Origin: Thermoplasmatota archaeon
Lineage (GTDB): Archaea; Thermoplasmatota; E2; DHVEG-1
Length of the DNA: 64,000 bases
Direction: 5' to 3'
Assembly (NCBI GenBank): GCA_030601705.1
Contig: JAUWBM010000001.1
Coordinates: 3,473 to 67,472, forward strand
Shown here: piece by piece, positions 16,231 through 52,595 of the stretch
Position numbering within the stretch: position 1 is the first letter of the stretch
How the letters are laid out: every line of letters begins with the position of its first letter
Position numbers and translations under genes: made by a program
The notes under the pieces: model-generated
The model's input: only the letters and a program-made list of their open reading frames with translations
Told to the model about the DNA's origin: nothing
Database searches by the model: none

Positions 16231-17181
16231 ATGAAAGGTCAAGGCATCGGCTTCGGAAAGGCCATTTTATTTAATGAACACTTTGTAGTATATGGGATAC
16301 CATCGATTGTTTCTGCAATAGGTAAATATACGGTTGCTAAAGTAGAACCATATGATCAATCTAAGTTGATACTAGAGGACAAAAGGGATGCAACCCCAAA
16401 GTACAAAGAAGAAAAACTTGACCAACAGAATAATTCCATTAATAGAATTTTGAAGAAAATGGGCATTGATACATCCAAAAATGGAATCAAAATTACGTTG
16501 AATGGGAATCTTTATGCAGCAAGTGGTATCGGTGCTAGTGCAGCTTCTTGTGTGGCGATTGGGAGAGCCCTATCAGATTATTATAACCTCAATCTTTCAG
16601 ATGATGAAATTAACGAGATAGCATATGAAGGAGAGAAAGGATATCATGGTACTCCATCAGGAGTTGACAACACTGCATCAACCTATGGAGGACTTATTTG
16701 GTTTCAAAAAGAAGAAAATAATATCATAGAGAAAATTTCAATTTCCAACCCTATTGAAATCGTAATAGGCAATACCGGCAAAGTTGCAAACACAGTTGCC
16801 GCAGTTGCTGGTGTTAGGGAGAGAAAAGAGGAAAAACCTGAGAAATATAAGGCGATATTTGATAGAACTGAAAATATAGCATATTTAGCAAAAACAGCGT
16901 TGCAAGAAGGGGATTATAGAGAAGTTGGAAAGCTCATGAATGAAAACCATAAACTATTGCAACAGATTGAAGTTTCATCGAGGGAACTTGATTTTCTTGT
17001 AAATATCGCACGAGAATATGGAGCCCTTGGATCGAAACTTACTGGTGGCGGCTTAGGGGGAAACATGATTGCTCTGACGCCGGGTAAAGAACTGCAAGAA
17101 AAGGTAGCAAATGCCATAGAAAAAGAAGGATTTCAGACCATAAAGACGGTCATAGGCGCATCCCGGGACGGTATCGAGTAA
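16231..17181 (+). CDS. mvk: mevalonate kinase (GHMP kinase)
   Basis: GKAILFNEHFVVYG, ASGIGASAA and GGGLGG GHMP motifs. Confidence 0.85.
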   Translation: MKGQGIGFGKAILFNEHFVVYGIPSIVSAIGKYTVAKVEPYDQSKLILEDKRDATPKYKEEKLDQQNNSINRILKKMGIDTSKNGIKITLNGNLYAASGIGASAASCVAIGRALSDYYNLNLSDDEINEIAYEGEKGYHGTPSGVDNTASTYGGLIWFQKEENNIIEKISISNPIEIVIGNTGKVANTVAAVAGVRERKEEKPEKYKAIFDRTENIAYLAKTALQEGDYREVGKLMNENHKLLQQIEVSSRELDFLVNIAREYGALGSKLTGGGLGGNMIALTPGKELQEKVANAIEKEGFQTIKTVIGASRDGIE

Positions 17182-18491
17182 TGAATCTTCGTGATTTTCT
17201 ATCCACACTTGAAAAGGAAAATAAATTGATACGCATAAAAAAAGAAGTATCTACAAATTATGAAATAGCGAATGTCATGTATTCTCTCGATGAAAAACCA
17301 GTTATTTTTGAGAATGTCAAAGGATTTGATTTCCAGGTTTTTGGTGGTATTACTTCAAATAGGGACATTATTGCCAATGGTCTAGACACAACAAAAGATA
17401 AAATTTTGTTTAAGCTTGTTGAAGCGCTTCGCAATCCAAAAGAACCGGAGATGACAGACAAAGCGCCATGCCAAGAAGTTGTGATAAAAGATCCTGACCT
17501 AAGTAAAATCCCACTCCTCTACCATCTAGATGGTGATGGCGGCAGATATGCCTCTGCTACGGTTTCAACGATAAAAGATCCCGATACAGGCAGAAACGTG
17601 TCATATCATCGTTTAATGGAAATTGGTAAAAACAAGTTCACTGCGCGTCTCATTAAAAACAGACAGACTCGTACCACTTACGACAAACTCCAGGGAGATC
17701 TAGAGATGGCAGTATGTATTGGTAACTCGGTAGCGGTTATGATTGCAGCTTCGCTTGGACCGCCTTCCGGTGTTGACGAATTTTCCATAGCAAATGCTCT
17801 TGATAAGACACCTATGATTAAATGTATAACAAAAGATCTTGAAGTTCCGGCTGAATCAGAATTTGTTATAGAAGGAAGACTTACTAGGGAACTCGATAGA
17901 GAAGGTCCCTTTGTTGACCTTACTGAAACAAGAGATTTTGAGCGACAAGAGCCTGTTTTTGTCGTTGATTGTATAACACGTAGAAAGGATGCAATGTATC
18001 AAGCGTTGATTCCTGGTAGACTTGAACACAAAACGCTCATGGGCATGCCAAAAGAACCGACTATCTACAACGAAGTAAGTAAAGTGGTAGACTGTAAAAA
18101 TGTGCTTGTAACAATGGGTGGCGGTTCATGGCTTCATGGTGTTGTCCAAATCAAGAAGAGACATCCTGATGACGCGAAAAAAGCAATTGAAGCTGCCTTT
18201 AACGGTCATAAAAGCATGAAACATGTGGTTATCATTGATGAGGATGTTGATATTTACAATTCAACTGCTATAGAATGGGCTATTGCAACTAGATTTCAGG
18301 GTGACAATGACCTGACTATAAAACCTGATCAACCAGGTAGCTCTCTTGACCCCTCGGGTAAACATGAAGTGGGGAAGAAAACTCTCACGACAAAGGTGGG
18401 CGTTGATGCAACGATTCCACCTCATATTGATAAAAGTAAATATGAGGTTGTTCAATACAAAAAAGTTGATATAGATGATTACCTCAGGTGA
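17181..18491 (+). CDS. UbiD-family decarboxylase (candidate trans-anhydromevalonate-5-phosphate decarboxylase)
   Basis: UbiD N-terminal signature (LRDFLSTLEKENKLIRIKKEV...VIFENVKG); start overlaps the mvk stop (TAATG). Confidence 0.8.
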   Translation: MNLRDFLSTLEKENKLIRIKKEVSTNYEIANVMYSLDEKPVIFENVKGFDFQVFGGITSNRDIIANGLDTTKDKILFKLVEALRNPKEPEMTDKAPCQEVVIKDPDLSKIPLLYHLDGDGGRYASATVSTIKDPDTGRNVSYHRLMEIGKNKFTARLIKNRQTRTTYDKLQGDLEMAVCIGNSVAVMIAASLGPPSGVDEFSIANALDKTPMIKCITKDLEVPAESEFVIEGRLTRELDREGPFVDLTETRDFERQEPVFVVDCITRRKDAMYQALIPGRLEHKTLMGMPKEPTIYNEVSKVVDCKNVLVTMGGGSWLHGVVQIKKRHPDDAKKAIEAAFNGHKSMKHVVIIDEDVDIYNSTAIEWAIATRFQGDNDLTIKPDQPGSSLDPSGKHEVGKKTLTTKVGVDATIPPHIDKSKYEVVQYKKVDIDDYLR

Positions 18492-18792
18492 TGGTAAATT
18501 CAAAGTGTGGCTTGAGGAGAAAAAGATTGGTGATGATCTCCTCTACATTCTAGGTGGAGGTGAACGAACTCATATTGGAGGAATTGTTTTCTGCGAACCA
18601 AATAAAGAACCTCAGATCATATATTTAGCAGGGCATTATGATGATATTGTTTTAAAAACAATTGCCGAGACAGCATGTAAAAAATACGGCACCAAAGTAG
18701 TTGTAACCGGTGGCATTCATATAGATAATGCTACAAAAAATGATATCGAGAAATTAGTTGAAAATTGTAGGGAGCTAGAAAAATGTATTTAA
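18475..18792 (+). CDS. small uncharacterised protein (105 aa) embedded in the mevalonate operon
   Basis: ORF track; both ends overlap neighbouring genes, suggesting translational coupling. Motifs GGGERTHIGGIVF and VVVTGGIHID; no family assigned. Confidence 0.4.
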   Translation: MITSGDGKFKVWLEEKKIGDDLLYILGGGERTHIGGIVFCEPNKEPQIIYLAGHYDDIVLKTIAETACKKYGTKVVVTGGIHIDNATKNDIEKLVENCRELEKCI

Positions 18793-19967
18793 CTAAAGAA
18801 GAAGAGAAAATTCTTGATGGCGATGAAGGGGAAGTAGAAGCGAGATTGTTTAGGCTGCTTGTGCGATTGGGAGAAATATACGGTGCTGATAAGATGATAC
18901 CTGTAGGATCTGTTCAAGTTGCAGGTGTTTCTTACAAATCCATTAGTGATCCGGGTACAGAGTTCTTAGAAGATATGGCATCAAAAGGTGCCAAGGTAAA
19001 GGTACTCACCTATCTCAATCCTGCAGGAATGGATCTTGAGAATTGGAAGAAAATAGGCTTTCCAAAGGATTTTGCAAAGAATCAGCTGAGGATAATGAAT
19101 GCATTCAAAAGCATGGGCATTGTAATCACTTCTACCTGTACACCGTATCTTGCTGGTAATTTACCACGTTTTAGAGAGCATATAGCCTGGTCAGAATCTT
19201 CTGCGGTTTCATTTTCTAATTCCGTAATTGGAGCGAGAACCAATAGAGAAGGAGGGCCTTCTGCTCTTGCTGCTGCTATTTGCGGTAGAACGCCAAACTA
19301 TGGATTGCATCTTTGGGAAAAACGTCAACCTAACATTAAAATTAAGGTGGACGCTGACATGGACTTTAATGCTGATTTTGGTGCTCTTGGATATTTTGTT
19401 GGTAAGCAAGTTAAAAATAAGATTCCGTACTTTACAGGCATAAAAAATGCAAACACAGACCAGTTAAAGGCACTTGGTGCCGCAATGGCTGCCTCAGGAG
19501 CAGTCGCGTTGTATCACGTCGAGGGGTTGACACCAGAGGCGGATTTGGTTGAAAAGGATGGTTTGGAAACTATAGACGTTGGTAAAAAAGAACTTGATGA
19601 AACCTATGAGAAACTGAATTCCGGTAAAGATCCAGATATTGTGATCCTAGGATGCCCACATGCATCTCTTAGAGAGATTTCGACGCTTGCGGTCAAACTT
19701 AAAGATAAACGTTTGAAGAAACCCATTTGGATATGTACTTCAAGAATGATGAAAGAGGCAGCAGATAGAATGGGTTTCACCGAGATAATCGAGAAGGCAG
19801 GAGGCTACATTGTTGCTGACACCTGCATGGTTGTTTCACCTATTGAGGAAATGGGATATAAAACTACAGGTGTAAACTCCGGTAAAGCAGCAAATTATTT
19901 GCCAGGCTTTTGTAAACAGGATGTTGTCTTTGCAAATATAAATAAGCTGATAGAGGTGCAATCATGA
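18783..19967 (+). CDS. aconitase X catalytic subunit (DUF521; phosphomevalonate dehydratase large subunit candidate)
   Basis: MYLTKEEEKILDGDEGEVEARLFRLLVRLGEIYGADKMIPVGSVQVAG, typical AcnX start. Confidence 0.8.
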   Translation: MYLTKEEEKILDGDEGEVEARLFRLLVRLGEIYGADKMIPVGSVQVAGVSYKSISDPGTEFLEDMASKGAKVKVLTYLNPAGMDLENWKKIGFPKDFAKNQLRIMNAFKSMGIVITSTCTPYLAGNLPRFREHIAWSESSAVSFSNSVIGARTNREGGPSALAAAICGRTPNYGLHLWEKRQPNIKIKVDADMDFNADFGALGYFVGKQVKNKIPYFTGIKNANTDQLKALGAAMAASGAVALYHVEGLTPEADLVEKDGLETIDVGKKELDETYEKLNSGKDPDIVILGCPHASLREISTLAVKLKDKRLKKPIWICTSRMMKEAADRMGFTEIIEKAGGYIVADTCMVVSPIEEMGYKTTGVNSGKAANYLPGFCKQDVVFANINKLIEVQS

Positions 19968-20353
19968 AAGGAAGAATGATATCCCCTGGAAAGATCGAGA
20001 GCGTAGCTATTGTTTCAGAGGAACCTATTGGTTTCTATGGAGGGATAGATATAAAAACTGGTACCGTTATCGAAAAAGATCATCCACTAGAAGGGAGGTC
20101 GGTGAAGGATAAGATACTTGTTTTTCCATGCGGTAAGGGTTCGACAGTTGGATCCTATGTTATCTATGGACTAAAGAAAAATGGGGTAGCACCAAGTGGT
20201 ATTATCAACAAAGAGACAGAAACAATAGTAGCGACAGGTGTAATATTAGCAGGTATTCCATGTGTTGACCAAATAGAGATAGAAAAAATAAAAGATGGAG
20301 ACACTGTTTTATTAGATGCTGATAATGGGATAGTAACAATACAAAAAAAATAA
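19964..20353 (+). CDS. aconitase X swivel-domain subunit (DUF126; phosphomevalonate dehydratase small subunit candidate)
   Basis: ~129 aa; GKGSTVGSYVIYGLKKNGVAPSGII motif; start overlaps the stop of the large subunit. Confidence 0.8.
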   Translation: MKGRMISPGKIESVAIVSEEPIGFYGGIDIKTGTVIEKDHPLEGRSVKDKILVFPCGKGSTVGSYVIYGLKKNGVAPSGIINKETETIVATGVILAGIPCVDQIEIEKIKDGDTVLLDADNGIVTIQKK

Positions 20354-21804: not shown

Positions 21805-23091
21805 CTATAACAACGCACGCATACTCCAGGAGACACCTATTCCATTTATGGGTATTTGATGCTCCCCTTCATCATCAGACCACGACAATGTGCCTTCAAT
21901 CTCGCAAGCTCCAACTTTCATACCCATATAGGTTGGGAATTTCCATATTTTATTGTATGAATTTTCTATTTCAATATTTACATCTAATTTTGTGTTTGTT
22001 CCATACAATAATGATTGACTTATAACATAAATAGGATTTAAACTAGGTTTTGCAGTTATACTGAAATCTGCTGGCATTCTTACGAACGGAAATATCTTAT
22101 CATCTTCCCTTGTTATTTTTAGATCAACGTTTTTCAGCTCTGTTATAGTCTCCCCATTATCCGTGGTTATAAGTAAGGTACCAAACGGGTTTATTATGGA
22201 TGTTTTACTAGATATAAACTGAGGAGTTGGATAATAATTACTTTCATAGATGTTCCATCCGTTGTCCAATGTCACATGAAACCAGTCCCATCCGTTGATT
22301 AATCCTTTTGTTACAGCCTTTGGAGACCATGCATGTTCATGATGCCCAGTTCCTTTTACTATAAATTTCTCGCCATCAATTTCTACTGTACCAGTGACTT
22401 CACACCCTGTAAATAGATAATTTGCAATACTGCTTTTTGATTTATCAAACGCTCTACTACCTATTGTCCATATTGGAAGTGAACTTGTTGTATAATCCAA
22501 ATCTATGATAATTTCGTGAGTGTTGTCTATGTCTTTATCTTCAGCATGGACGTGCCAGTTTGGATATTCTCCTTCAGCCCACGAATCCTCAAATTCCACG
22601 TTTACTCCTGGAGAACTTGCTATAAGAGTGCCGGAGTTTAGAATTCCAAGATACCTCTTTTTATTGATCATTCCCCCAAACGTTTTTCCATTCTCACCAT
22701 GCAACACAACTACTAGAAGATCTGGTTTCAATGTTCCGATTAAATCACCTCGAGCCATATGATTGAAGCTTATTGACACAGACCAATCCTTTAATTCACT
22801 ATCCTCATCGTTAAATACTGCCCCAAAGTACCACCATTCCCTAGATATGCGAATTTTATCATAATGCACGCCCTCATCCTCAGGTGAAACATCTCTCCTG
22901 AAAGAGGGTATAAAAGAAGTTGGTGGAGTTGGTATTTCTGGTGGCGGAGCTGTTACATTTTCGTCCTCTGGTGGAGAAACTTCCTCCAATAGTGGTAAAG
23001 AAATATAGCCGGCTTTGTACAAAAAAAGTCCTGCAACTACTATCAATGCTACCACTATTATGGCATCAATCTTTTTTAATTTAATTTTCAT
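21805..23091 (-). CDS. membrane-anchored CrtC/AttH-like (carotenoid 1,2-hydratase family) protein
   Basis: N-terminal TM (IIVVALIVVAGLFLY) and Pro-rich linker; H..D...EWWYF...WDWFHV motifs typical of the hydroxyneurosporene synthase/AttH family. Confidence 0.6.
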   Translation of the reverse strand: MKIKLKKIDAIIVVALIVVAGLFLYKAGYISLPLLEEVSPPEDENVTAPPPEIPTPPTSFIPSFRRDVSPEDEGVHYDKIRISREWWYFGAVFNDEDSELKDWSVSISFNHMARGDLIGTLKPDLLVVVLHGENGKTFGGMINKKRYLGILNSGTLIASSPGVNVEFEDSWAEGEYPNWHVHAEDKDIDNTHEIIIDLDYTTSSLPIWTIGSRAFDKSKSSIANYLFTGCEVTGTVEIDGEKFIVKGTGHHEHAWSPKAVTKGLINGWDWFHVTLDNGWNIYESNYYPTPQFISSKTSIINPFGTLLITTDNGETITELKNVDLKITREDDKIFPFVRMPADFSITAKPSLNPIYVISQSLLYGTNTKLDVNIEIENSYNKIWKFPTYMGMKVGACEIEGTLSWSDDEGEHQIPINGIGVSWSMRALL

Positions 23092-23234
23092 TCTCCACCA
23101 AACTATTTGTTTTTATATATTTCTTTATTATATTTGTTATTAATAGTTTTCTTTACAGTTATTACCATAACTTCTAAAGAACAGGTTTTAATAAAGAGTG
23201 ATAGATTACCCAAAAAACCATTTCGGGTAGAAAC

Positions 23235-23753
23235 ATGATAGAAAAGGGCGATATTGAAAAATGCTTTCCAGAGTTACAATGGATAAAAGATACTAATTTA
23301 AGAGGAAAAGTAGTTGAAGTATGGAAAAAAGCTGCAGACCGTGGTAAATGGAATACGCTCGATGATGTACCATTTACTCTCCTTTTTGAGAATTCAGGAT
23401 TGCTTACTGAACATACAAGACGGATAACACGTTTAGCAAAGAACATTATGGAAGTAAGAGAGGAAGATATTAATGGAGATTATTTGATCGCAGGTGCTCT
23501 TCTTCATGATGTTGGAAAACTTTTGGAATACGAAATCCGTGATGGCAAGGTTGTAAAAAGCGAGTATGGTAAGAGATTCCGCCATCCTGTTTCTGGTTCG
23601 AAACTTGCTTGGGAATGCGGCCTACCTGAGGATATTGTTCATATAATATATGCTCATTCACATGAGGGAGACAAGAGTGAGAGAACCCCCGAAGCGATTA
23701 TTGTTCATCATTGTGACTTTATAGATTTTGAGATAAAGAAATCGATGGTGTAA
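23235..23753 (+). CDS. HD-domain phosphohydrolase
   Basis: GALLHDVGK...HH..D motif set. Confidence 0.7.
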   Translation: MIEKGDIEKCFPELQWIKDTNLRGKVVEVWKKAADRGKWNTLDDVPFTLLFENSGLLTEHTRRITRLAKNIMEVREEDINGDYLIAGALLHDVGKLLEYEIRDGKVVKSEYGKRFRHPVSGSKLAWECGLPEDIVHIIYAHSHEGDKSERTPEAIIVHHCDFIDFEIKKSMV

Positions 23754-23757
23754 GATT

Positions 23758-25245
23758 ATGAGGGTAAAGAACGCTGCGGGTAGGACGATTGAGACTGCTA
23801 TTGGTGATAAAACGCTGAAGCCTTTTGCAGGAGCAAAAAAATACAGTTGGTGTTCAAAGGTTACAAGTTTGACTGACGCATTGAAAAAATGCGGCCTGAA
23901 GAACGGAAATACACTTTCTTTTCATCATCAACTTCGCAATGGTGACAATGTAATCAATATGACGCTTGCTGCAGCACGTGATCTCGATGTTAAAAATATT
24001 AGAATGGCACAGACTGCAATATTTAACGTTCATGAACCTGTTATAGACTTTATTAAAGAGGGTGTTGTAAATAGAATAGAGGGAAGTATTAATGGTGTTG
24101 TCGGAGATTTTGTTTCTAAGCATCCTCTCCCATATCCCGTTGTGTTGCGTTCTCATGGCGGGCGTTGGGCTGCTGTTAAAACAGATGAATTACATGTTGA
24201 TATTGCTGTTATAGCTGCTTCTGCCGCCGATGTGCGTGGGAATTGTACGGGAATTATTGGTGAGAGTGCGTTTGGCCCCATATCTTATTCTGAAATTGAT
24301 GCAATGTGTGCTGATCATGTGATCGTGGTGACTGACAATGTTGTTGATTACCCCTGTAAATTTCAAGAGATTCAGGAGAGATATGTTGATTATGTAGCAG
24401 AGGTAGATCGCATAGGCGATCCCAAAAATATTATGTCGGGTACAACAAAGATAACAGAAGATCCTATGAAACTGCAGATCGCTCGTGATTGTGTTGAATT
24501 GATGGATGCTGTGGGGATTATTAAAGAGGGCATGATTTTTCAGTCGGGTGCGGGTGGAATATCTCTTGCTGCAATGAAATATTTAGATGATAGACTTGAA
24601 GAAAAAGATATAGTTGCAGCTACTGCAACTGGTGGTCTTACAAAGTTAATATGTGATATTTATAAGGCAGGTCGTGTTAAAAATATCTATTATTCCCAAG
24701 TTTTTGATGAGTATTCTGTAAAGTTTATCCAAGAAGATCTTGGACTGCCAGCTGATATTGGTCATTACGCTGATCCAACCTCCAAGGGCCGTACTATTGA
24801 TGGCCTTGATACAGTTGTTCTTGGTGCAACAGAGGTCGATACAAATTTCAATGTTAATGTTAACACACATAGTGATGGTCGACTTTTACATGGTATAGGA
24901 GGTCATCAGGATACATCTGCTGGTTCATCCTTATGTATTATTTCTTGTCCTGTTTTTAGAAAAGCTAACCCGATTGTTAGAGAGAAGGTTACAACAATTA
25001 CAACCCCTGGAGATGTTGTAGACGCCATTGTAACTAATGAAGGGACAGCAATAAATCCCCAGCGGAAAGACATCATTGAAAAGGTAGAGGGGAAAATAAA
25101 CCTCGTTCCAATAGAAGAGCTAAAGAATATGGCATATGATGCAACAGGTGGACCAGAAGAGTTGGACCTTGGCGAAGAAATCGTAGGCATGACGAAATGG
25201 ATGGATGGAACCGTGTTAGATATTATAAAACGGGTTAAAGAGTGA
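23758..25245 (+). CDS. citF: citrate lyase alpha-subunit homolog (citrate CoA-transferase, CitF family)
   Basis: Near-collinear match to CitF: LSFHHQLRNGDNVINM, VVLRSHGGRWAAV, VDIAVIAAS..D..GN, LDTVVLGATEVDTNFNVNVNTHSDGRLLHGIGGHQDT, TTITTPGDVVDAIVTNEGTAINPQR. Confidence 0.85.
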   Translation: MRVKNAAGRTIETAIGDKTLKPFAGAKKYSWCSKVTSLTDALKKCGLKNGNTLSFHHQLRNGDNVINMTLAAARDLDVKNIRMAQTAIFNVHEPVIDFIKEGVVNRIEGSINGVVGDFVSKHPLPYPVVLRSHGGRWAAVKTDELHVDIAVIAASAADVRGNCTGIIGESAFGPISYSEIDAMCADHVIVVTDNVVDYPCKFQEIQERYVDYVAEVDRIGDPKNIMSGTTKITEDPMKLQIARDCVELMDAVGIIKEGMIFQSGAGGISLAAMKYLDDRLEEKDIVAATATGGLTKLICDIYKAGRVKNIYYSQVFDEYSVKFIQEDLGLPADIGHYADPTSKGRTIDGLDTVVLGATEVDTNFNVNVNTHSDGRLLHGIGGHQDTSAGSSLCIISCPVFRKANPIVREKVTTITTPGDVVDAIVTNEGTAINPQRKDIIEKVEGKINLVPIEELKNMAYDATGGPEELDLGEEIVGMTKWMDGTVLDIIKRVKE

Positions 25246-25251
25246 TATAAA

Positions 25252-26022
25252 ATGAGATGGAACACCAAAATCACAAAGGTTGAGCCGAATCATTTGGTAA
25301 CACGTGGTTATAGACAAGAAGATTTGATAGGGAATATACCGTATTCTCACGTTGTATACCTGCTTTTGAAAGGCGATCTGCCATCAAAAGAACATGGAAA
25401 GATGATTGATGCCATTCTTACTGCCTGTATCGATCATGGGGTAACACCTCCTTCATCAATTGCATCTAGAACTGTAGCATCTGGTGGAGTACCCCTTCCA
25501 ACTGCTGTTGCAGCCGGAATTCTATCTATTGGAGATGCTCATGGTGGGGCAATAGAAAAAGGTGCAAAATTCCTGCAAAATGGCATTTTACGTATGAAAG
25601 AAGAGGGTAAAACAGTAGAAGAAATAGCAGAGATTCTTGTTAATGAGCATAAGGAACAACATAAACGGATATCGGGGTTCGGCCACAGGGTTCATACTTC
25701 AGATCCCAGAACAAAAAGACTTTTTGTACTTGCCGAAGAATTAAAAATTGCTGGAAATCATATGGCTCTTTCAAATGCAGTTGAATTAGAACTTGAAAAA
25801 ACATATGGAAGAAAGCTGCCAATAAATGTAGATGGCGCAATAGCAGCAATTATTTCAGATATGGATTTTGACTGGAGACTTGGAAAAGCATTCTTTTTGT
25901 TAGGTAGAGTTGCAGGATTAACTGCGCATGTTTATGAAGAACAAACTCAGGAAAAACCCATGAGAAAAATGTTTTCAATAGAATGTGACTACAACGGTCC
26001 AAAAGAAAGAGATCTCCCCTAA
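25252..26022 (+). CDS. short citrate-synthase-family protein (citryl-CoA lyase-like, CCL)
   Basis: ~256 aa; VVYLLLKGDLP, DAHGGAIE, GFGHRVHTSDPR and C-terminal R..G..AH..EE correspond to citrate-synthase catalytic motifs without the large N-terminal domain. Confidence 0.75.
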   Translation: MRWNTKITKVEPNHLVTRGYRQEDLIGNIPYSHVVYLLLKGDLPSKEHGKMIDAILTACIDHGVTPPSSIASRTVASGGVPLPTAVAAGILSIGDAHGGAIEKGAKFLQNGILRMKEEGKTVEEIAEILVNEHKEQHKRISGFGHRVHTSDPRTKRLFVLAEELKIAGNHMALSNAVELELEKTYGRKLPINVDGAIAAIISDMDFDWRLGKAFFLLGRVAGLTAHVYEEQTQEKPMRKMFSIECDYNGPKERDLP

Positions 26023-26080: not shown

Positions 26081-27400
26081 ATGAAAATTTTGCTGGTATT
26101 TCCTAGGATTGAACACGGTGCATTAACCTGTAAAGATAAAGGGTCATGGAGTTCCATACTCTTTGGCTATCCAATTATAACACTCCCGCATCTTGCAGCA
26201 ATAACCCCGAGTAACCATATTGTCAAAATAGTCAACGAGAATTATGACACCATTGATTTTGATGAAGATGTTGACTTGGTAGGAATAACCTGTTATACTA
26301 TGACAGCGCCACGTGCGTATGAAATTGCAGATGAGTTTAGAGAACAAGGGAAAACGGTTGTATTAGGTGGATATCACCCAACAGCAATGCCAGAGGAAGC
26401 AAAACAACATGCAGATAGCATTGTAATGGGCATGGCAGAAGCGAATTGGCCAAAGACAATTAATGATTTTGAAAATGGAAAATTAAAACCCATATATGAA
26501 AGGGATCATGATTTTGATATATCTAAAGTCCCTCCGTTGAGAAGGGATCTTATTAGACATAACCCGTTCATAGGCGCAATTCAAACAACAAGAGGATGTT
26601 CTAATCGTTGTGAATTTTGTGCAATTAGCAGCTTCTGTGGAAATATGGTAAAACAAAGACCCGTCAAAGATGTTGTCGAAGAAATTAAAAATATGCCTAA
26701 TAATTTGTTTATATTTCATGATCCGCATCTCACCTTACATCGAAAATATGCAATGGAGCTCTTTAAAGAGATGATACGGCAAAAAATTCATAAGGGATGG
26801 GTAGCAAATGGAACGGCAAATATTCTTGGTAAAGCTGAAGAGAAATTTTTAGATCTAGCTCAAAAAGCTGGATGTGTCGAATGGTTCGTAGGTTTTGAAT
26901 CAGTTAATCAGGAGACATTAAATAATATCAATAAAAAACACAACAAAGTAGAAGATTTTAAAAAAATGATAAAAAGAGTCCATGATCATGGAATGACCAT
27001 CCAGGGAGGTATAATCTTTGGGTTTGACGAGGATACACCCAATATTTTTGACACAACACTTGAGACAATTAATGACTGGGATTTAGACGTGCTTGAGGTA
27101 AATATTCTTACTCCTTATCCGGGTACACCATTATTTGAAAGGTTAGACAGAGAGGGAAGGATACTTACAAGGGACTGGAGTAGATATAATCAAGTTGATG
27201 TTGTCTTTAAACCTAATAATATGACCGGAAAAGAATTATATGAGGGTGCAAGAAGAGTAGCTAAAGAATTTTATTCACCCCATAACATAGTAAAAAAATT
27301 AACACAGATTATTATGACAACTAAAAGATTCTCAGGCATCATTCCGTCTGCAACAAGTTTTGCCTTCCGACGTTATTATAAAAGGGATTTTAATTTCTGA
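26081..27400 (+). CDS. B12-binding-domain radical SAM enzyme
   Basis: N-terminal cobalamin-binding-like Rossmann (VDLVGITCYTMTAPRAYEIADEFREQGKTVVLGGYH) followed by the CSNRCEFC radical-SAM cluster motif. Confidence 0.8.
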   Translation: MKILLVFPRIEHGALTCKDKGSWSSILFGYPIITLPHLAAITPSNHIVKIVNENYDTIDFDEDVDLVGITCYTMTAPRAYEIADEFREQGKTVVLGGYHPTAMPEEAKQHADSIVMGMAEANWPKTINDFENGKLKPIYERDHDFDISKVPPLRRDLIRHNPFIGAIQTTRGCSNRCEFCAISSFCGNMVKQRPVKDVVEEIKNMPNNLFIFHDPHLTLHRKYAMELFKEMIRQKIHKGWVANGTANILGKAEEKFLDLAQKAGCVEWFVGFESVNQETLNNINKKHNKVEDFKKMIKRVHDHGMTIQGGIIFGFDEDTPNIFDTTLETINDWDLDVLEVNILTPYPGTPLFERLDREGRILTRDWSRYNQVDVVFKPNNMTGKELYEGARRVAKEFYSPHNIVKKLTQIIMTTKRFSGIIPSATSFAFRRYYKRDFNF

Positions 27401-27576: not shown

Positions 27577-27951
27577 TTAAATCACAGTCCCTGTATCAGC
27601 ATCACCAACACTTCTGTAGAACTTACCAGGACTTTGAAAGTGCCCTCTTGGATATCTCTTACGAAAATTCGGTTTTTGCTTGGACAATTCCCTAGATGAA
27701 GCACCTTTTAAAAGATGAAAAGCTTGAGAAACACTCATTGTTGGAGGAATTCCAACAACAACATGAATGTAATCTGATATAACGCTTAGTTCCTCGATCT
27801 TGATTTTATGTCTTATAGCAACTTCTTCTAAAATTTCTTCGCGAAGCTTTTTATTTTCCACTTTCATAAACATCTTGTATCTATACTTAGGATAGCATTC
27901 CAAATGGTACAAATTCTGGTCAATGCCATGGCTACCGTTAACCAATTTCAT
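27577..27951 (-). mobile_element. tnpA: IS200/IS605-family transposase TnpA (Y1 HUH) gene, apparently truncated at both ends
   Basis: YHLECYPKYRYKMF...IEELSVISDYIHVVVGIPPTMSVSQAFHLLKGASSRELSKQKPNFRKRYPRGHFQSPGKFYRSVGD matches IS200 TnpA collinearly; the typical C-terminal tail is missing. Confidence 0.75.
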
Positions 27952-29790: not shown

Positions 29791-31095
29791 ATGGAAAGGA
29801 AACAAAAAAATCCATGGACACCTCAGGATGAGGGAGATCACTATCCTGTCATGAAAGAATGGTGGTGTATCGAAACCCTCTTCAAAACATTAGATGACAA
29901 CAGGAAATGGAATTTTAAGGCCTCAATGGCCTACGAAATGGAGACTCCCTCTTGCTTTATTATCTATTTTCTTTTTGACATAACTTCCAACAAGTGTGTC
30001 GTTCATAATGCACTTAATGATGACATTGAAAAACTATCTCATCAAAAAAATAAGGTTGATTTGAAATATAAAAAATCTACGATATCTGGCCTATATCCAA
30101 ATTATAATATTCATTTCGAAAATTTAAAACAAGATTTTATAATCGACATGGAATACAACGCCAAGATATTACCCCATTGGAGTGCGCAAGATTCAACAAA
30201 CGGATATCTGCCCATAGGTATCGATCATTATAGGTACGGGTGGCTTCTAAATTGCAATCTCAAGGGAACTTTAAAATTAAAAAATGAATCGCATAAAATC
30301 GAAGGTAAAGGCTATCTCGAGCGAGCCTGGGGGAATTGGTCCTACTCAAATCCTTTTAAAAGACTCTCAGGGATTAAAAAAACCGTTTTAACATATGGTC
30401 ATCTTACCAGTTGGTGGTTATCACAACATAAGCCGCGTATACCAAACCGTATTGCCTTTACAACAGAAAATAATCCCTTTGGTTACGACTGGTTCTGGGG
30501 CATATTTGATAACGACTGGAGCGTTTTCTACGGAAATTCCCTATTCTGGTTAAGTGAAGGTCCAGCATTTGGTGTATTAACGCTATTTACCGACGGAAAT
30601 AATTACTTGGAGTTTGGCGATGTGAATTTTCATTATAACAAAACCAAATATATTAAAGAACACGATATGTACTATCCAAGCGACATGACCATCACAGCAA
30701 AACTAGATGATAAAGAGATTCGATTGCGAGCTTGGCCAGTATGCGATGGTTATGAGTTTATTACTCCGTTTAACGATGGTGGATTTTACAAGGTCTTTAT
30801 TATGTGTGAGATGCCCGGACGAATTGAAGGCATCTATTACGATGGCGAAAGATCTGTGAAAATAAAGGGAGATTGTAAGATGGTACCGCAAAGACAGCCA
30901 TCCAGATTAGGTCATAACTCGCTTGCAATTAAATTTACAAAACCTCCTAAAGGAGTTGGCATTTCGTTTGATTTAAATTCACATTACTTGAAGAAAAAAA
31001 TGTTCACCGAGATACAACTGGCTCCTCGCCCAAAGCTTACATTCGATTTAAAAAAAGTTGATGTTTCTAAAATAAACAAAAAAAAAATTTCTTGA
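29791..31095 (+). CDS. CrtC/AttH-like hydratase-family protein (second paralog)
   Basis: DEGDHYPVMKEWWCIETLF and YDWFWGIF mirror the H...EWWY / WDWFH motifs of the first paralog. Confidence 0.6.
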   Translation: MERKQKNPWTPQDEGDHYPVMKEWWCIETLFKTLDDNRKWNFKASMAYEMETPSCFIIYFLFDITSNKCVVHNALNDDIEKLSHQKNKVDLKYKKSTISGLYPNYNIHFENLKQDFIIDMEYNAKILPHWSAQDSTNGYLPIGIDHYRYGWLLNCNLKGTLKLKNESHKIEGKGYLERAWGNWSYSNPFKRLSGIKKTVLTYGHLTSWWLSQHKPRIPNRIAFTTENNPFGYDWFWGIFDNDWSVFYGNSLFWLSEGPAFGVLTLFTDGNNYLEFGDVNFHYNKTKYIKEHDMYYPSDMTITAKLDDKEIRLRAWPVCDGYEFITPFNDGGFYKVFIMCEMPGRIEGIYYDGERSVKIKGDCKMVPQRQPSRLGHNSLAIKFTKPPKGVGISFDLNSHYLKKKMFTEIQLAPRPKLTFDLKKVDVSKINKKKIS

Positions 31096-31099
31096 AAAA

Positions 31100-32467
31100 T
31101 TAGTCATAAAGATTCCTGTTATCAATTAATCTTTTAGCCTTTATTGAATTTCTGTCAAAAGTATTTGGTTCAACAAGTTTTATCTGGGGTTTTGCAATGG
31201 TTTTTGAGTGTGTTATGCCATCTTTAATCTCTGGCATTTTCATTATAGCATCCGCTATTTTTTCTCGTATGGATTCGTTTATCACTTGGCTTTCAGCAAT
31301 TACGGTAATAAAGTCCTTTCCATTTTTTTTATCAAATACTACCTGATATTCAATGATTTCAGGAATATTGAAAATTGCCTCATCAAACATGTTTGTAAAA
31401 AGATTGTCACCTGCTCCAATTGGAATAAGATCATCTGATCTTCCCTTAATTTCAATTCTTTTTAGAGGAAGGCCACAATCACATATACTCGGAATTATCC
31501 TTCCAAGATCATGCGAATTATATCGAATCAAAGGCATCCCCTCTCTATCATAGGTTGTAAAAAGTAATTCTCCAATCTCTCCATCCTCCAATTGTTCACC
31601 AGTTTCAGGATCAACCACTTCAGTAAGAAAATTAGTTTCGCTAAGATGCATGCCATGTTTCTTTTCACATTCACCTGCCATCAGTAATCCAATTTCAGTG
31701 GTGCCATATCCTATAAAAACATCGGCATCCCATTCTTTTTCAATGAATTTTCTCATTGAATTAGGCGTTGGCTCAGCCCCAATAAGAAACTTTTCAATTC
31801 CGAGCCCTTTCAAATCACAGAGTTTTTCCATTTCTTTTGTAAGATAATTGACACGTGAAGAAACATCTGAGAAAATATTTGGTTTATATTCATTTAGAAT
31901 CTCTAATTCTTCCTCAACTAATAATCTCCCTGTAGCAAGTGTTAAACATCCGATAATCTCATATGCTTTATCTAGACAATATCTATTTCCCCATATCTCT
32001 GTACCATATCCCACTTCAAAGGTAAGGCGGACAATGTCTTTGTGTGTAATTCCGTACATGAGTTGCAAACCTGTTGCAGTAGAGACTGCTATCCTTTTAA
32101 TGTCATTTTTCGTAAAGTATGCTTTTTTTGGTTTACCTGTTGTACCGGCCGTCGTAAAAACCTTAATGAACCTATCCTCAGGAACTGAGAAAAAAGATCT
32201 TGGGTCATTTTGTAAGTCTATAGTATCTGTATACGGAATCTTTGTCATATCTTTAATAGATTTTATATCGCTTGGTTTAAGACCATATTTTTTAAAAAGT
32301 CTATGATAGAAAGGAGAAGTATTATATGCATACCTTAAAGATTTTTTAAGTTTTGAAAAATTATATCTATCCAAAGTTATTCTAGTCAATTTACCAAAAT
32401 ACGATTTTTTTGCAGGCTCCTGGCCATTTGATTTTTCTCTCAATCTTGACTTAACAAATGGTGCCAA
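31100..32467 (-). CDS. phenylacetate-CoA ligase / coenzyme F390 synthetase-family adenylate-forming enzyme
   Basis: PaaK-like N-terminus (SPFYHRLFKKYGLKPSDIKSIKDMTKIPYTDTIDLQ...FTTAGTTGKPK) and ANL fold length. Confidence 0.75.
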   Translation of the reverse strand: MAPFVKSRLREKSNGQEPAKKSYFGKLTRITLDRYNFSKLKKSLRYAYNTSPFYHRLFKKYGLKPSDIKSIKDMTKIPYTDTIDLQNDPRSFFSVPEDRFIKVFTTAGTTGKPKKAYFTKNDIKRIAVSTATGLQLMYGITHKDIVRLTFEVGYGTEIWGNRYCLDKAYEIIGCLTLATGRLLVEEELEILNEYKPNIFSDVSSRVNYLTKEMEKLCDLKGLGIEKFLIGAEPTPNSMRKFIEKEWDADVFIGYGTTEIGLLMAGECEKKHGMHLSETNFLTEVVDPETGEQLEDGEIGELLFTTYDREGMPLIRYNSHDLGRIIPSICDCGLPLKRIEIKGRSDDLIPIGAGDNLFTNMFDEAIFNIPEIIEYQVVFDKKNGKDFITVIAESQVINESIREKIADAIMKMPEIKDGITHSKTIAKPQIKLVEPNTFDRNSIKAKRLIDNRNLYD

Positions 32468-32944: not shown

Positions 32945-33940
32945 TTGAAGGCAAATTCAAATTCAAAATATACCATTAGAGACAAACTTTTTGCTCATTT
33001 AGAAACATGGAGACTTTATACTGTAATATGGTGTGGATTAGTTAGTTTAGCTGGATCATGCATTGCTTTTGGAGATTTTCCACCATTAAAAATTGCGTTT
33101 CTAGCTTTTTTTATACCAATGATGGGTTGGACGGCAGGATTATATTTAGCAGATTTTTTAGATAGAAAATTAGATGCTATACAAAAACCTCACAGACCCA
33201 TTCCCTCGGGTAGAATTAAACCATATGAAGCAATTGCAATAGGAGCAATATTTGCATTAACTGGTTTTATACTATCTACCCTATTAAGTCCAAATAATAT
33301 TTTACTTGTTTTTGTAGTAGCTCTATTGGTACTAGGATATGCAAAATTTTCTAAATCTCGCGGTATAGTGGGCAATTTAAATAGAGGATTTGTTACAGTT
33401 GCTACATATTTTTTTGGTGTTTTTTCTATAGGTCAATCTATTCAGGAAATACCAATATACATTTGGTTGCTTTCATTTGTATTTTTAATTCATGATACGA
33501 ACAGTAATTTAGTTGGAGCAATAAGAGATATGGAGGGAGATAAAAAAGGTGGATATATAACAATACCTGTAAAATATGGACTTAAAAAATCAATATTTAT
33601 TTCATTAATTCTAACTTTTACTTGGCTTTCCCTTGTTCTTTATCTACCGTATTATTTCAAATTTTTAAAGATTGAATTCTATCTACTAATGATAATCGAT
33701 GTTTTAATTCTATTCTCCCTTTATGTTTATTTATTCATGACAGTAAAAAATTATTCTAGAGAAAAGGCACTAAAATTCCATGAATTTTTCGTAATAGAGC
33801 GAGTAACTTTAGCATCTGCCTTAATTTTTGGAATTGCAAGTATAAACAAAGCAGGAATTATTTTTGTTATTGCACTTTTAGTTACATATCTCTCTCAATA
33901 TTTACTAAGAAAAAGATATGAGTTTAAGGAGAAAAAATGA
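32945..33940 (+). CDS. UbiA-family prenyltransferase (integral membrane)
   Basis: Multi-TM protein; Asp-rich motifs YLADFLDRKLD and NLVGAIRDMEGD; TTG start per the track. Confidence 0.8.
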   Translation: MKANSNSKYTIRDKLFAHLETWRLYTVIWCGLVSLAGSCIAFGDFPPLKIAFLAFFIPMMGWTAGLYLADFLDRKLDAIQKPHRPIPSGRIKPYEAIAIGAIFALTGFILSTLLSPNNILLVFVVALLVLGYAKFSKSRGIVGNLNRGFVTVATYFFGVFSIGQSIQEIPIYIWLLSFVFLIHDTNSNLVGAIRDMEGDKKGGYITIPVKYGLKKSIFISLILTFTWLSLVLYLPYYFKFLKIEFYLLMIIDVLILFSLYVYLFMTVKNYSREKALKFHEFFVIERVTLASALIFGIASINKAGIIFVIALLVTYLSQYLLRKRYEFKEKK

Positions 33941-34941: not shown

Positions 34942-34985
34942 CTCTGATACTTAATTAAAATTTGAAAAGGAGGATACCTAAAAGG

Positions 34986-35609
34986 ATGGTGAAATTTATT
35001 GGATTTTTATTGAATAAAATAGGTGTAAAATTTAATGCTCATAAATTAAAAATATTTATTGATAAAGGTTTCATTATAATTGAAAAAATTATTACCAAAC
35101 TTATCAAGTTAATTCCTTTTTATCTTGATTTTTACGAGGAAATACTTGAAAAAGAAATAATATTAGCAGATATTTCAAAAAATGATAAAATTGTTCATAT
35201 TGGATGTGGGTCCATTCCTGCTACATGCATCCTTATTACAAAAAAAACAAATGCAAGTATTATTGGAATTGAGAAAAATGAACATTCCGTAAAACACGCA
35301 AAACAATGTGTTTCTCAATTAAATCTTTCAGATAAAATTGAGATTAAACTTTCTGATGCTAGTGATTTTTCAATTAAAAATTTCGATCTCATTATTATAG
35401 CACAAGGCATAACTCCCTATAGAGAAATTTTAGAGAAAATCTCCAAGGACATTAAAAAAGATGCTCGTGTGGTTTTTAGAACAAGTTCGAAAATAAGTGG
35501 GGAGCTTTCCGAAAATGATTTGTTTTTAAAAGATATATTTAAAATAGATAAGATGGTGTATCATAAACAAAATAGTTTGTTAATTTCAATTTTGCTTCAA
35601 AAAAAATAA
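34986..35609 (+). CDS. nicotianamine-synthase-like (NAS/CntL-like) protein, short form
   Basis: DKIVHIGCGSIPATCILI resembles the NAS GSGPLPLT motif; FDLIIIAQ and DARVVFRTS resemble the NAS C-terminal block. ATG at 34986 follows a GGAGG-like motif. Confidence 0.5.
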   Translation: MVKFIGFLLNKIGVKFNAHKLKIFIDKGFIIIEKIITKLIKLIPFYLDFYEEILEKEIILADISKNDKIVHIGCGSIPATCILITKKTNASIIGIEKNEHSVKHAKQCVSQLNLSDKIEIKLSDASDFSIKNFDLIIIAQGITPYREILEKISKDIKKDARVVFRTSSKISGELSENDLFLKDIFKIDKMVYHKQNSLLISILLQKK

Positions 35610-35860
35610 TCTAATTTTTTTGGGAATATTGTCAATATTTATTTTTTATTAAAAATGTTTATATCTCTGGTGATTCCATTGTAGAAGGGGAAGGGAGATA
35701 AAGAAAAATGTTAAATGCATTACTCTCCATGGTGCTGTTTTTCCACTTTAATTTCAACTATGATATAATATGACATTTTCGGGTAAAGAGCATAAGTTCA
35801 TTTTTGTATTAAACATTAAGTATTATAAGATTGATATTTCCCCTCCGCTGAGGATGGTTT

Positions 35861-36427
35861 ATGATAAAAAAATTCCTTGACTACTTGTATTATTCATTTG
35901 AAATTTTTTCTAATTACATTCCATTCCTTGCAAAGTTATATATAAAATTTCATGCACCTTCGGTAAAAAAAGAAATCAAGATGTTGAATTTGTCATCATC
36001 TGATAGAATTCTGCATATAGGTTGTGGTGCGATACCCTATACGTCCATAGGAATATCAAGGGAAATTGATACAGAGATTGTAGGGATAGATTGCAATCCC
36101 CGTGTCGTAGATATTGCTATTGATTATCTAAAAAGATATAATCTTTCCAATATGGTTAAAATTGAGATAGGAGATGGAAAAACCTATAGTATCTCAGGTT
36201 TCGATGTTATCATACTCTCTTATGGAATCGATGGTCAGGATTTGGTTTTAAGGCACGCTATCGATTCGATGAAAAAGGGAGCAAGAATTATTTTAAGGAG
36301 ATTCACGACAGAGAGAGATAATTATATTGATTCAATTGTGAAAGAGTTCTCAGTTTGTAGTATTAAATTGCTGTTGACACAGGAATCAATTTTAATTGTT
36401 AAAAAAACCCAAACAGATATACAATGA
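35861..36427 (+). CDS. nicotianamine-synthase-like protein, second paralog
   Basis: RILHIGCGAIPYTSIGIS, FDVIILSYGIDGQD, GARIILRRFT; paralogous to 34986..35609. Confidence 0.5.
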   Translation: MIKKFLDYLYYSFEIFSNYIPFLAKLYIKFHAPSVKKEIKMLNLSSSDRILHIGCGAIPYTSIGISREIDTEIVGIDCNPRVVDIAIDYLKRYNLSNMVKIEIGDGKTYSISGFDVIILSYGIDGQDLVLRHAIDSMKKGARIILRRFTTERDNYIDSIVKEFSVCSIKLLLTQESILIVKKTQTDIQ

Positions 36428-38004: not shown

Positions 38005-39027
38005 TCATACTATGTTAAAATGATAGTTAATGATCTGTAATAATACGTCTAGGAATACTAAAGTATATACCATAAGAAGATAGTTGTAGCCTTTTCTCCC
38101 AACAATTTTTCCCAACTCTCCCATGCCTTCTTTCTTTAATTTTAAGAGTTTACAATACCAAGACAGTGAGTATATCCACACTATTAGAAATAGTACCAAG
38201 AATATGGGAGAAAGCAGTGTTCTCATGTAAAGTAATACACCCAATATACCTGAAAGTACAAACATGAAGAAAGAGATTTTTGCTGCAGTTTTTTCTCCAA
38301 AAGATGTTGCATATGTTTTTACTCCCAGTTTACGATCTCCTTCTATATCGTGTATTCCTTCGGGTAAATCATGGGCATTATCTGCAAAGTATGTAAAAAG
38401 AACGAGAAGGACCATCATTTGAAAATCATAAGTATTAAATGAAATTTTATCTCCAAATATCGGAAATGTTAATGATATATTGCCAGTTTGTCCCATAGTC
38501 CAAATTGCAAAGAATCCAAAGATTGCTACTACAACCCATTGTATAGGAGTAAAAATTTCAGAGTATGCAGGTATCTTTATAATTTTTTTCAAGTATTTAT
38601 TATGAAACGCCACAAATAAGGCTACTGCTTCAACTAATATAAGACACCATATGCTAACGAGAAACGCAAATATAAACGTCATAGCCGAGAATATCAGTGC
38701 TATCACAAAGAATTTTTTTGAACTTATTCTGCCTTTAGGTAGCGGCCGATCTGGGTGAACAACAGCGTCGATATCAATATCTGTTATATCATTCCATATA
38801 AGTGCTGCAAAAAAACCTGAGTAGAGAGTTAATATCGTTAAAATAATTGTTTTTATAATCTCCCAGTCATACGCCTGTAATCCATATGCCAACATTGGTA
38901 CACTAGCAAACATGAGTACATGGCTTATCAATTCATAAATCGGAAAAGGACGCCAAGAAAAAAGGAAACTAAATGGTCCTTTGGGAGAGTTAGCTTTCAT
39001 CTTTCCCTCTAAGTGATTCTTCTTCAT
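38005..39027 (-). CDS. UbiA-family prenyltransferase (second copy; start uncertain, possibly an internal Met)
   Basis: ALIWNDITDIDIDAVVHPDRPLPKGRIS (UbiA motif I) plus a second Asp-rich motif; ~8 TM segments. Confidence 0.8.
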   Translation of the reverse strand: MKKNHLEGKMKANSPKGPFSFLFSWRPFPIYELISHVLMFASVPMLAYGLQAYDWEIIKTIILTILTLYSGFFAALIWNDITDIDIDAVVHPDRPLPKGRISSKKFFVIALIFSAMTFIFAFLVSIWCLILVEAVALFVAFHNKYLKKIIKIPAYSEIFTPIQWVVVAIFGFFAIWTMGQTGNISLTFPIFGDKISFNTYDFQMMVLLVLFTYFADNAHDLPEGIHDIEGDRKLGVKTYATSFGEKTAAKISFFMFVLSGILGVLLYMRTLLSPIFLVLFLIVWIYSLSWYCKLLKLKKEGMGELGKIVGRKGYNYLLMVYTLVFLDVLLQIINYHFNIV

Positions 39028-52400: not shown

Positions 52401-52595
52401 GGCAACTCAAAGGAGACTGCCTTACATCTAATGAAAGAGGCAGTCAGTAAAGATGTAGATATGATCATATGCACCTCTCCATATTGTGAGTCTCATCTCT
52501 TGCTGAGTCAAAGAAAGGGATCTTGGCGTTCGGTAGATATTGAAGTAACAGATGTGTATAAAGTGCTTCTTTCTTCTTTAGAAGGTGATGCTTAA
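49494..52595 (+). CDS. large multidomain Fe-S flavoprotein: NfnB/GltD-like NAD(P)H oxidoreductase + 2x[4Fe-4S] ferredoxin + Cys-depleted MvhD-like + CCG-like domains (HdrL-like fusion)
   Basis: N-terminus CSNACPAGINV...CGRVCTRPCEDSC plus FAD/NAD(P) GxGxxG motifs (IIGAGPAGLSAA; VVVIGGGSTAFDAA), as in the GltD/SudA family. Mid region CIGCGRCEEVC...CASCSACVSACP. The later segment resembles MvhD/FlpD with its cysteines substituted; C-terminus Cx..CP-like. Confidence 0.7.
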   Translation: MPFDAESIIGGKSGVLRGLVKEYKIEIKGKPECSNACPAGINVKAYVNLIANRKFEEAVEVIRQANPFPAVCGRVCTRPCEDSCEHGVEGDPVSIRALKKYASDYELARRPLVMEPCKTVYDEKVAIIGAGPAGLSAAVDLVRMGYPVTVFETKKDPGGMLRYAIPPYRLPDRILKREIDWIKGLGVNIKTGTKVDDSVTLFKKGYSAILIATGAPKSFSLGIGGEESEGVIDALWFLRGICNNSPIKMEGNVVVIGGGSTAFDAARSAIRLGVKKVTLAYRRGIEEMPAEREEVEHAQEEGVEILTLAIPNKIIIKGGKVTGVEFLKAKLGEPDESGRRRPVPIKGSEFVLNADIIIPAIGARPDVGTVGNCKITAQNGRINVKDKGCTIVKGVFAAGDVETGPSSVVKAIGRGHEAAVGINTYFRGAEYTEIGDSSKSVPIVLEPPTYSRSLHSPKRLRKEERVASFNEVEGSFADFEIIDEASRCFTCGPCDVCTVCLPNCNHKQVVAQTEETTFLLKVPSDLSSIVTEKGPSTVKVKANGNEKSMTLHSLIPAVDIDRCIGCGRCEEVCAYKAIRNVLKKDGRIVAEVVHNSCASCSACVSACPSGAISQGYMSDKEILSRLYEKKTPFEGIKALMSYWSTPSPAFDYNGVVEVMSARKPTPSFLIRSLARSGKGLLVIGPNEKTGSHYLPGEEHPLNTIQQARSLLKLIGISPDRIQYKAVPNGTNPSGLLKEFSKSLDKKKLVTLKAPLPKSINGPLGESMTILRIMGANPDIKPSDSVIPIQPVKSGGTAFFEGCLPMLHWIGESHKLFDLSPTRQAIYGLIKKMKIDAGFIEGFSCPSKGLLQTKTDGIKEIVSKIESNNLKSFKKVNPKKLILGTPESFSSFSKEKYFGTISSLPDELLNVAKKSKGFAPIEKTVSIHRACAIENDPFYETTKKLLDLIPGLTIVELNGQCEHRGLENFDGNSKETALHLMKEAVSKDVDMIICTSPYCESHLLLSQRKGSWRSVDIEVTDVYKVLLSSLEGDA

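Follow-up and report, generated by a model that had tools for sequence, protein, structure and literature searches.

A citrate CoA-transferase paired with citryl-CoA lyase as a candidate ATP- and carrier-independent citrate lyase of Thermoplasmata archaea

How might a homologue of CitF, the alpha subunit of citrate lyase, work in an archaeon where the gene next to it encodes a short protein of the citrate synthase family? The question is raised by a 64-kb window (the whole stretch that we analysed, 64,000 nt of contig JAUWBM010000001.1 from a Thermoplasmatota archaeon), in which the genes for an HD-domain protein (HD), CitF and a putative citryl-CoA lyase (CCL) follow one another on the same strand, separated by 4 nt and 6 nt in the open reading frame (ORF) list (Table 1). 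We propose that CitF and CCL of this MBG-D/Thermoprofundales-like unit would form a two-enzyme citrate lyase using neither ATP nor an acyl carrier protein (ACP), a reading drawn from sequence comparison to which we assign a probability of roughly 0.65. A sequence-only reading of the locus had described the order HD, CitF and citrate-synthase-family ORF with the 6-nt gap between the last two, and this matches the ORF coordinates exactly; the HD assignment of the upstream gene also holds (PF01966, 5e-12), and that gene is conserved as part of the cluster.

The three genes are under strong purifying selection and show no decay, with dN/dS values against orthologues of 0.06-0.17 overall, 0.06-0.07 for CitF and 0.07-0.09 for CCL, and a public read assembly holds a contig with the identical three-gene set. 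The window has about 36% GC and carries split RNA polymerase A'/A'' and B genes together with archaeal mevalonate pathway genes; the nearest named genomes are Thermoplasmatales/Thermoplasmata metagenome-assembled genomes (MAGs) of the MBG-D (Thermoprofundales) type, e.g. SG8-52-4, SG8-52-3, SM1-50 and SCGC AB-539-N05. The TATA-like TTTTAATAAA in the AT-rich region 5' of HD is a possible archaeal promoter of the whole unit.

The 256-residue protein had been called CCL-like, with its catalytic His/His/Asp retained, and a placing of it within the citrate synthase family had been asked for. Judged by its NCBIfam scores it groups with CCLs and not with citrate synthases, as it reaches 309 bits against the citryl-CoA lyase model NF004866 (cut-off 245) and 26-96 bits against the citrate synthase models, whose cut-offs are 332-594. 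It matches PDB 6HXP_A, annotated as a citryl-CoA lyase, from end to end (E 1.4e-70, 50% identity), an entry which we take to be the Hydrogenobacter thermophilus enzyme. The Pfam family Citrate_synt (PF00285, 7.5e-40) is covered at profile positions 164-355 of 357 only, that is, in its C-terminal half, and in both length and profile coverage the protein falls short of a full-length two-domain citrate synthase, which has about 370-430 aa and hydrolyses citryl-CoA. H97 (HGGA), H145 (GFGHR), D194 (NVDG), R153 and R219 are invariant; the first three are presumably the catalytic His/His/Asp of citrate synthase, and the two arginines the substrate-binding ones. As the match to 6HXP is full-length and the gene is under purifying selection (dN/dS about 0.08), we reject the view that the protein is a pseudogene or a fragment of citrate synthase; on these comparisons it is a true CCL orthologue.

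CitF is likewise complete: PF04223 (8e-126) covers residues 35-493, and the solved CitF structures 2hj0 and 1xr4 are matched with E values of 1e-106 and 6e-103. It is 36% identical to E. coli CitF and shares 68 invariant positions with the E. coli, Salmonella and S. mutans proteins, including E359 of the EVD motif and G381-G382-H383-x-D385 of the GGHxD motif. Its score against TIGR01584, 472 bits, lies just short of the equivalog cut-off of 501. The CCL-linked CitFs of the two groups of loci described below differ from the E. coli, Salmonella and S. mutans enzymes at N112, H371, R/K375, L377-H-G-I380 and K402. We considered these residues as a signature of ACP independence and ruled this out, since their LHGIGGHQD core occurs also in a CitF fused to CitE (P0361) and in 62 metagenomic citE-linked CitFs, which had been retrieved with the LHGIGGHQD pattern itself; the core is therefore a trait of the subfamily and not a marker of ACP independence.

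The absence of CitD, CitE, CitX and CitG next to CitF, also part of the sequence-only reading, stood up to a wider search. As probes we used E. coli CitC, CitD, CitE, CitX and CitG from the annotated cit operon, together with the ACP and CitE portions of two citrate lyase fusions, and the search space comprised the window and 87 related loci, 1.15 Mb in total. Against the window the E. coli probes gave only noise in tblastn (E>=0.06) and nothing in phmmer at E<=1, and six-frame translations of the window and the 87 loci gave no hit to any of the probes at E<=1 (phmmer). With these probes, 62 of 80 metagenomic loci whose CitFs belong to the same subfamily showed CitE directly upstream of CitF, and 41 of the 80 showed CitD, so that the local negative is meaningful.

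The pairing of CitF with CCL is widely kept. A scan with the CCL alignment, taking one genome per GTDB species, found 430 relatives, the best 80 of which were examined. CitF stands directly upstream of CCL in 54 of the 55 archaeal species-level loci with room upstream, the gap between them ranging from -58 to +17 nt with a mode of -4, i.e. a 4-nt overlap. The main group (G1) takes in at least about 60 Thermoplasmata GTDB species genomes with CitF-CCL; in 47 of its 48 loci CitF is directly preceded by HD. A fused LeuCD-like gene of the aconitase family follows CCL in 37 of 59 loci, and in the subgroup of the window a B12/radical S-adenosylmethionine (SAM) gene takes its place. In a second group (G2; L067, L069, L070 and L072), which includes some complete MAG chromosomes, CitF and CCL stand alone, without HD or the aconitase-family gene, and this CitF is only 48% identical to that of the window; it scores 592 bits against TIGR01584, above the equivalog cut-off. 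Complete genomes in which the pair is present include CP070836.1, CP070739.1 and CP070751.1, and a contig of 1.07 Mb with P0152 has it too. With a further lineage from metagenomes (L090), the pairing is present in at least three CitF lineages. A rough neighbour-joining (NJ) tree places the CCL-linked CitFs inside citE-linked ones at two or more points, a pattern that suggests canonical citrate lyases as the source from which they were recruited, perhaps on more than one occasion; all our trees are distance-based and without support values, and are indicative only. Apart from these pairs, orphan CitF genes with no CitE, CitD or CCL nearby were seen in L098/L099, L156/L158, L102, L089 and L125, some of them adjoining genes of the isocitrate dehydrogenase or aconitase family.

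The closest bacterial CCLs, 60-64% identical to that of the window, come from Stahlbacteria and related MAGs (L080-L086), in the gene order HD, SucC-like ATP-grasp subunit, SucD-like CoA-binding subunit, CCL, AcnL, AcnS, often with a gene of the isocitrate dehydrogenase family upstream. This is the arrangement expected of an ATP-dependent system of citryl-CoA synthetase (CCS) and CCL. In the NJ tree of CCLs, those linked to CitF in archaea fall into a single clade, whose sister is the group of SucCD-linked bacterial CCLs. Neither the window nor any of the archaeal loci examined contains a homologue of the bacterial SucCD-like genes. Read by gene order, the Thermoplasmata arrangement of HD, CitF, CCL and, in many loci, an aconitase-family gene has CitF in the slot that the synthetase occupies in the bacterial CCS/CCL-type cluster. 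CitF and citryl-CoA synthetase would have one task in common, the formation of citryl-CoA from citrate, and no other in-silico argument for CitF feeding CCL is as strong. A different order, dapA-dapB-CCL-AcnL-AcnS-DUF366 with no adjacent synthetase or CitF, was seen in WOR-3-like bacterial MAGs (L074, L076-L079, L088).

Set against the known citrate-cleaving systems, the archaeal pair combines features of several. With CCS/CCL it shares an orthologous second enzyme, a predicted course of two steps through free citryl-CoA, and the HD and aconitase-family neighbours of the bacterial clusters, whereas a CoA-transferase replaces the ATP-dependent SucCD-like synthetase and the predicted net reaction uses no ATP and yields acetate rather than net acetyl-CoA. 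With CitDEF (EC 4.1.3.6) it shares a homologous alpha subunit (36-46% identical to E. coli CitF) that keeps EVD and GGHxD, and the same predicted net breakdown of citrate into acetate and oxaloacetate. In CitDEF, however, the gamma subunit CitD carries a phosphoribosyl-dephospho-CoA group, whereas in the window and the 87 loci the CitD ACP, CitE with its HpcH/HpaI fold and CitX/G/C are all missing, and the lyase step would fall to the unrelated citrate synthase fold, with free CoA as the presumed acyl carrier. The C-terminal module of ATP-citrate lyase (AclAB/ACLY) is homologous to CCL (PDB 6qcl and 6hxj, E about 1e-19) and cleaves citryl-CoA, but there the citryl-CoA is made through citryl-phosphate by an ATP-grasp/SucCD-like module that has no counterpart here. 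Citrate synthase, including its reversal in the reversed oxidative tricarboxylic acid (TCA) cycle, has the catalytic core and the His/His/Asp in common with CCL, but CCL, with its 256 aa and its match to the C-terminal half of the Pfam profile only, groups with the CCLs.

The two half-reactions are known as EC 2.8.3.10, in which acetyl-CoA and citrate give acetate and (3S)-citryl-CoA, and EC 4.1.3.34, in which (3S)-citryl-CoA gives acetyl-CoA and oxaloacetate, and the isolated alpha subunit of citrate lyase reportedly takes acetyl-CoA in vitro. The Hydrogenobacter CCL works on free citryl-CoA (Aoshima et al. 2004). Given the common (3S)-citryl-CoA intermediate, an alpha subunit that accepts acetyl-CoA and a CCL that uses free citryl-CoA, the pair should be able to cleave citrate without ATP or ACP. 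We propose that CitF would move CoA from acetyl-CoA to citrate, releasing acetate, and that CCL would split the (3S)-citryl-CoA formed into oxaloacetate and acetyl-CoA, the latter re-entering the first step, so that acetyl-CoA would act catalytically and the net reaction would be citrate to acetate and oxaloacetate. As the thioester is conserved, the pair should work near equilibrium and be reversible, with cleavage probably favoured at millimolar metabolite levels. Citrate could come from isocitrate and 2-oxoglutarate, e.g. from the glutamate released in protein degradation, or from a reductive arm of the TCA cycle; neighbours of the aconitase and isocitrate dehydrogenase families, here and in related clusters, suggest a link from 2-oxoglutarate to oxaloacetate and acetate. 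As to its origin, the unit is probably a CCS/CCL-type cluster in which a CitF taken over from canonical citDEF lyases has replaced the ATP-dependent synthetase. From these comparisons we infer that CitF uses free acetyl-CoA and that the substrate is citrate, and likewise which way the flux runs and what the pair does physiologically.

Several observations weigh against this proposal. Because the CCL-linked CitFs are nested among ACP-dependent ones, and alignment comparison gave no sequence signature that separates the two, efficient use of free CoA thioesters by CitF is an assumption. No CitF-CCL fusion was found among the best 150 family representatives; the long ones that we considered as Rosetta-stone fusions (P0361, P0363 and P0405) are CitF-(ACP)-CitE and were ruled out. 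One locus (L125) has a CitF like that of the main group without CCL or HD, and in the window the aconitase-family gene is not adjacent to the unit; aconitase, isocitrate dehydrogenase and CCS genes were not found in the 64 kb. The absence of citD, citE, citX and citG covers the window and the 87 loci, which would leave room for an ordinary ACP-dependent citrate lyase with these genes elsewhere, CCL being an unrelated neighbour or the partner of an unlinked SucCD-like synthetase. The ACP-dependent relatives of CitF agree with such an enzyme, and MBG-D MAGs do have sucC and sucD, some in two copies. Yet in the 62 related loci citE, usually with citD, stands immediately 5' of citF and nothing of the kind was found in the 1.15 Mb round the archaeal pairs, and the adjacency of CitF and CCL, whose stop and start codons often overlap, is kept across lineages whose CitFs share only 48% identity, so that we consider an ordinary lyase highly improbable.

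The substrate could instead be a citrate analogue such as citramalate, homocitrate, 2-methylcitrate or malate. This possibility, a further point against citrate cleavage, follows from the adjacent aconitase-family gene of the related loci, which is LeuCD/HacAB-like and scores under every equivalog cut-off; the window CitF, too, lies just under the citF cut-off, and a CitF-like alpha subunit is known from a citramalate lyase. On the other side, CCL is 50% identical to a characterised citryl-CoA lyase and keeps the presumed oxaloacetate-binding residues, the CitF of the second group passes the cut-off (592 against 501 bits), and related clusters contain isocitrate-dehydrogenase-family genes and canonical citDEF, which together make an analogue improbable. 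The main rival accepts both enzymes and reverses them: CCL would condense acetyl-CoA with oxaloacetate and CitF would pass the CoA to acetate, giving a thioester-conserving, ATP-free, acetate-activating citrate synthase in place of an absent canonical enzyme. In nearly all MBG-D MAGs the K01647 entries are these CCLs, with only one other citrate-synthase-family hit listed, so the canonical enzyme seems to be missing; there are precedents in the ATP-citrate lyase that runs in the synthesis direction in Desulfobacter and in the succinyl-CoA:acetate CoA-transferase of acetate oxidisers (both taken from a 2022 paper). The aconitase-family neighbour is compatible with either direction. The equilibrium constant of the citrate lyase reaction is about 0.3-1 M, and at this value micromolar oxaloacetate and millimolar acetate would leave less than about 1 uM citrate at equilibrium, favouring cleavage unless there is a strong downstream pull; MBG-D archaea are, moreover, predicted protein fermenters that excrete acetate. 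We therefore regard synthesis as rather unlikely, and cleavage by CitF and CCL as the preferred reading.

The first gene of the unit adds a second question, that of the HD protein. It matches TIGR00277 (HDIG, NCBIfam) besides the Pfam HD family, its AlphaFold2 model has a pLDDT of 90.8, and the best fold match in the PDB is the HD domain of YhaM (TM 0.71), the rest being generic HD phosphohydrolases. Its invariant residues include H60, H91-D92, H117, H141, H158, H159 and D161, and the predicted protein has the HD fold and the H...HD...D metal ligands of metal-dependent phosphohydrolases. No informative sequence match was found in the PDB, and no specific relative of known function by sequence or fold. 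Homologues 42-51% identical accompany three gene sets, namely CitF with CCL, SucCD-like synthetase with CCL, and canonical citD-citE-citF, the last in the order citDEF-HD-aconitase in, e.g., L104, L105, L108, L109, L117, L119 and L124 (four homologues beside citrate-cleaving genes are placed in Table 1). HD may be a so far unrecognised accessory factor of citrate cleavage and, if so, would be common to three non-homologous citrate-cleaving systems. An aconitase-family gene is usually found near the HD homologues.

Full-text literature searching gave no description of a system of CitF and CCL, and we consider that the combination is probably a hybrid of citrate lyase and CCS/CCL, apparently undescribed as a gene combination. 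The 2022 paper has citrate cleaved in the reductive cycle by ATP-citrate lyase, CCS/CCL or reversed citrate synthase. In a supplementary table of the main MBG-D genome paper these CCL genes are scored K01647 "citrate synthase", including those of the L047/L050 contigs and KYK24513.1 of SG8-52-4, and almost no further citrate-synthase-family gene is given per MAG; among our loci, the CCL genes of L025, L047, L050 and L054 (SG8-52-3, 3300003432D, M11B2D and SM1-50) match K01647 entries of that table. Canonical citrate synthase may accordingly be missing in MBG-D. The same paper inferred an oxidative TCA cycle, partly on the basis of CCL scored as citrate synthase, and noted the absence of aclAB, so that reading the genes as CitF and CCL alters the published reconstruction; pathway schemes that demand CCS together with CCL would, for their part, call the reductive TCA cycle absent.

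Which (reverse) TCA cycle variant operates, and at what energy cost, depends on how citrate is cleaved or formed, and in sediments across the world MBG-D/Thermoprofundales reportedly rank with the most frequent and abundant archaea. A hybrid of CoA-transferase and CCL would have zero ATP cost and should be reversible. It would also be a clear example, within central metabolism, of one module being replaced by a non-orthologous one and, potentially, a compact citrate lyase of two genes that dispenses with prosthetic-group machinery. The widest version of the proposal, in which CitF-CCL is a fourth, thioester-conserving and freely reversible route for making and breaking citrate, and the sole citrate-forming or citrate-cleaving enzyme of MBG-D, with HD as a shared accessory, would open an ATP-free reductive route from 2-oxoglutarate to acetate plus oxaloacetate or let acetate into the cycle without ATP; it is conceivable, but we hold it only tentatively.

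Table 1. Positions of the genes and elements discussed. Positions are those of the window unless a locus is named.
Feature	Position	Strand	Basis or remark
AT-rich intergenic region 5' of HD	23092-23234	+	TATA-like TTTTAATAAA at 23186-23195, read by eye
HD-domain (HDIG-type) metalloprotein, 172 aa	23235-23753	+	ORF list, PF01966, TIGR00277
CitF homologue, 495 aa	23758-25245	+	PF04223, PDB 2hj0/1xr4; predicted citrate:acetyl-CoA CoA-transferase, EC 2.8.3.10 chemistry, free CoA thioesters
Citryl-CoA lyase (CCL), citrate synthase family, 256 aa	25252-26022	+	NF004866, PDB 6HXP_A
HD homologue, L083	5166-5675		beside citrate-cleaving genes
HD homologue, L104	5717-6223		beside citrate-cleaving genes
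HD homologue, L105	3270-3776		beside citrate-cleaving genes
HD homologue, L109	3263-3769		beside citrate-cleaving genes
Archaeal modified mevalonate cluster	16231-20353
Isoprenoid/lipid-like cluster gene	21805-23091	-
Isoprenoid/lipid-like cluster gene	26081-27400
IS200-like Y1 transposase gene	27577-27951	-	PF01797 2.7e-21
Isoprenoid/lipid-like cluster gene	29791-31095
Isoprenoid/lipid-like cluster gene	31100-32467	-
Isoprenoid/lipid-like cluster gene	32945-33940
Isoprenoid/lipid-like cluster gene	34962-36427
Isoprenoid/lipid-like cluster gene	38005-39027	-
Two large flavin/iron-sulfur oxidoreductase genes	49494-54679		Pyr_redox_2, Fer4, FlpD/MvhD-like and Fer2 domains

The citrate genes sit inside an apparent isoprenoid/lipid modification cluster, with similar neighbours in L004 and L006, which comprises two paralogous CrtC-like lipocalin proteins, a B12-binding radical SAM enzyme, an AMP-forming ligase, two UbiA prenyltransferases and SAM methyltransferases. 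A rearrangement may have taken place at the IS200-like gene just 3' of the radical SAM gene, in the subgroup without an adjacent aconitase-family gene. Further upstream, the modified mevalonate cluster contains a GHMP kinase, a UbiD-family decarboxylase, a small chaperone-like protein (PF21758) and the large and small subunits of aconitase X, and its synteny is kept in the same two loci; the kinase is mevalonate-kinase-like by reading and by the Pfam families of the orthologues there. Finally, the domains of the two large oxidoreductases suggest an electron-bifurcating or heterodisulfide-reductase-associated complex.

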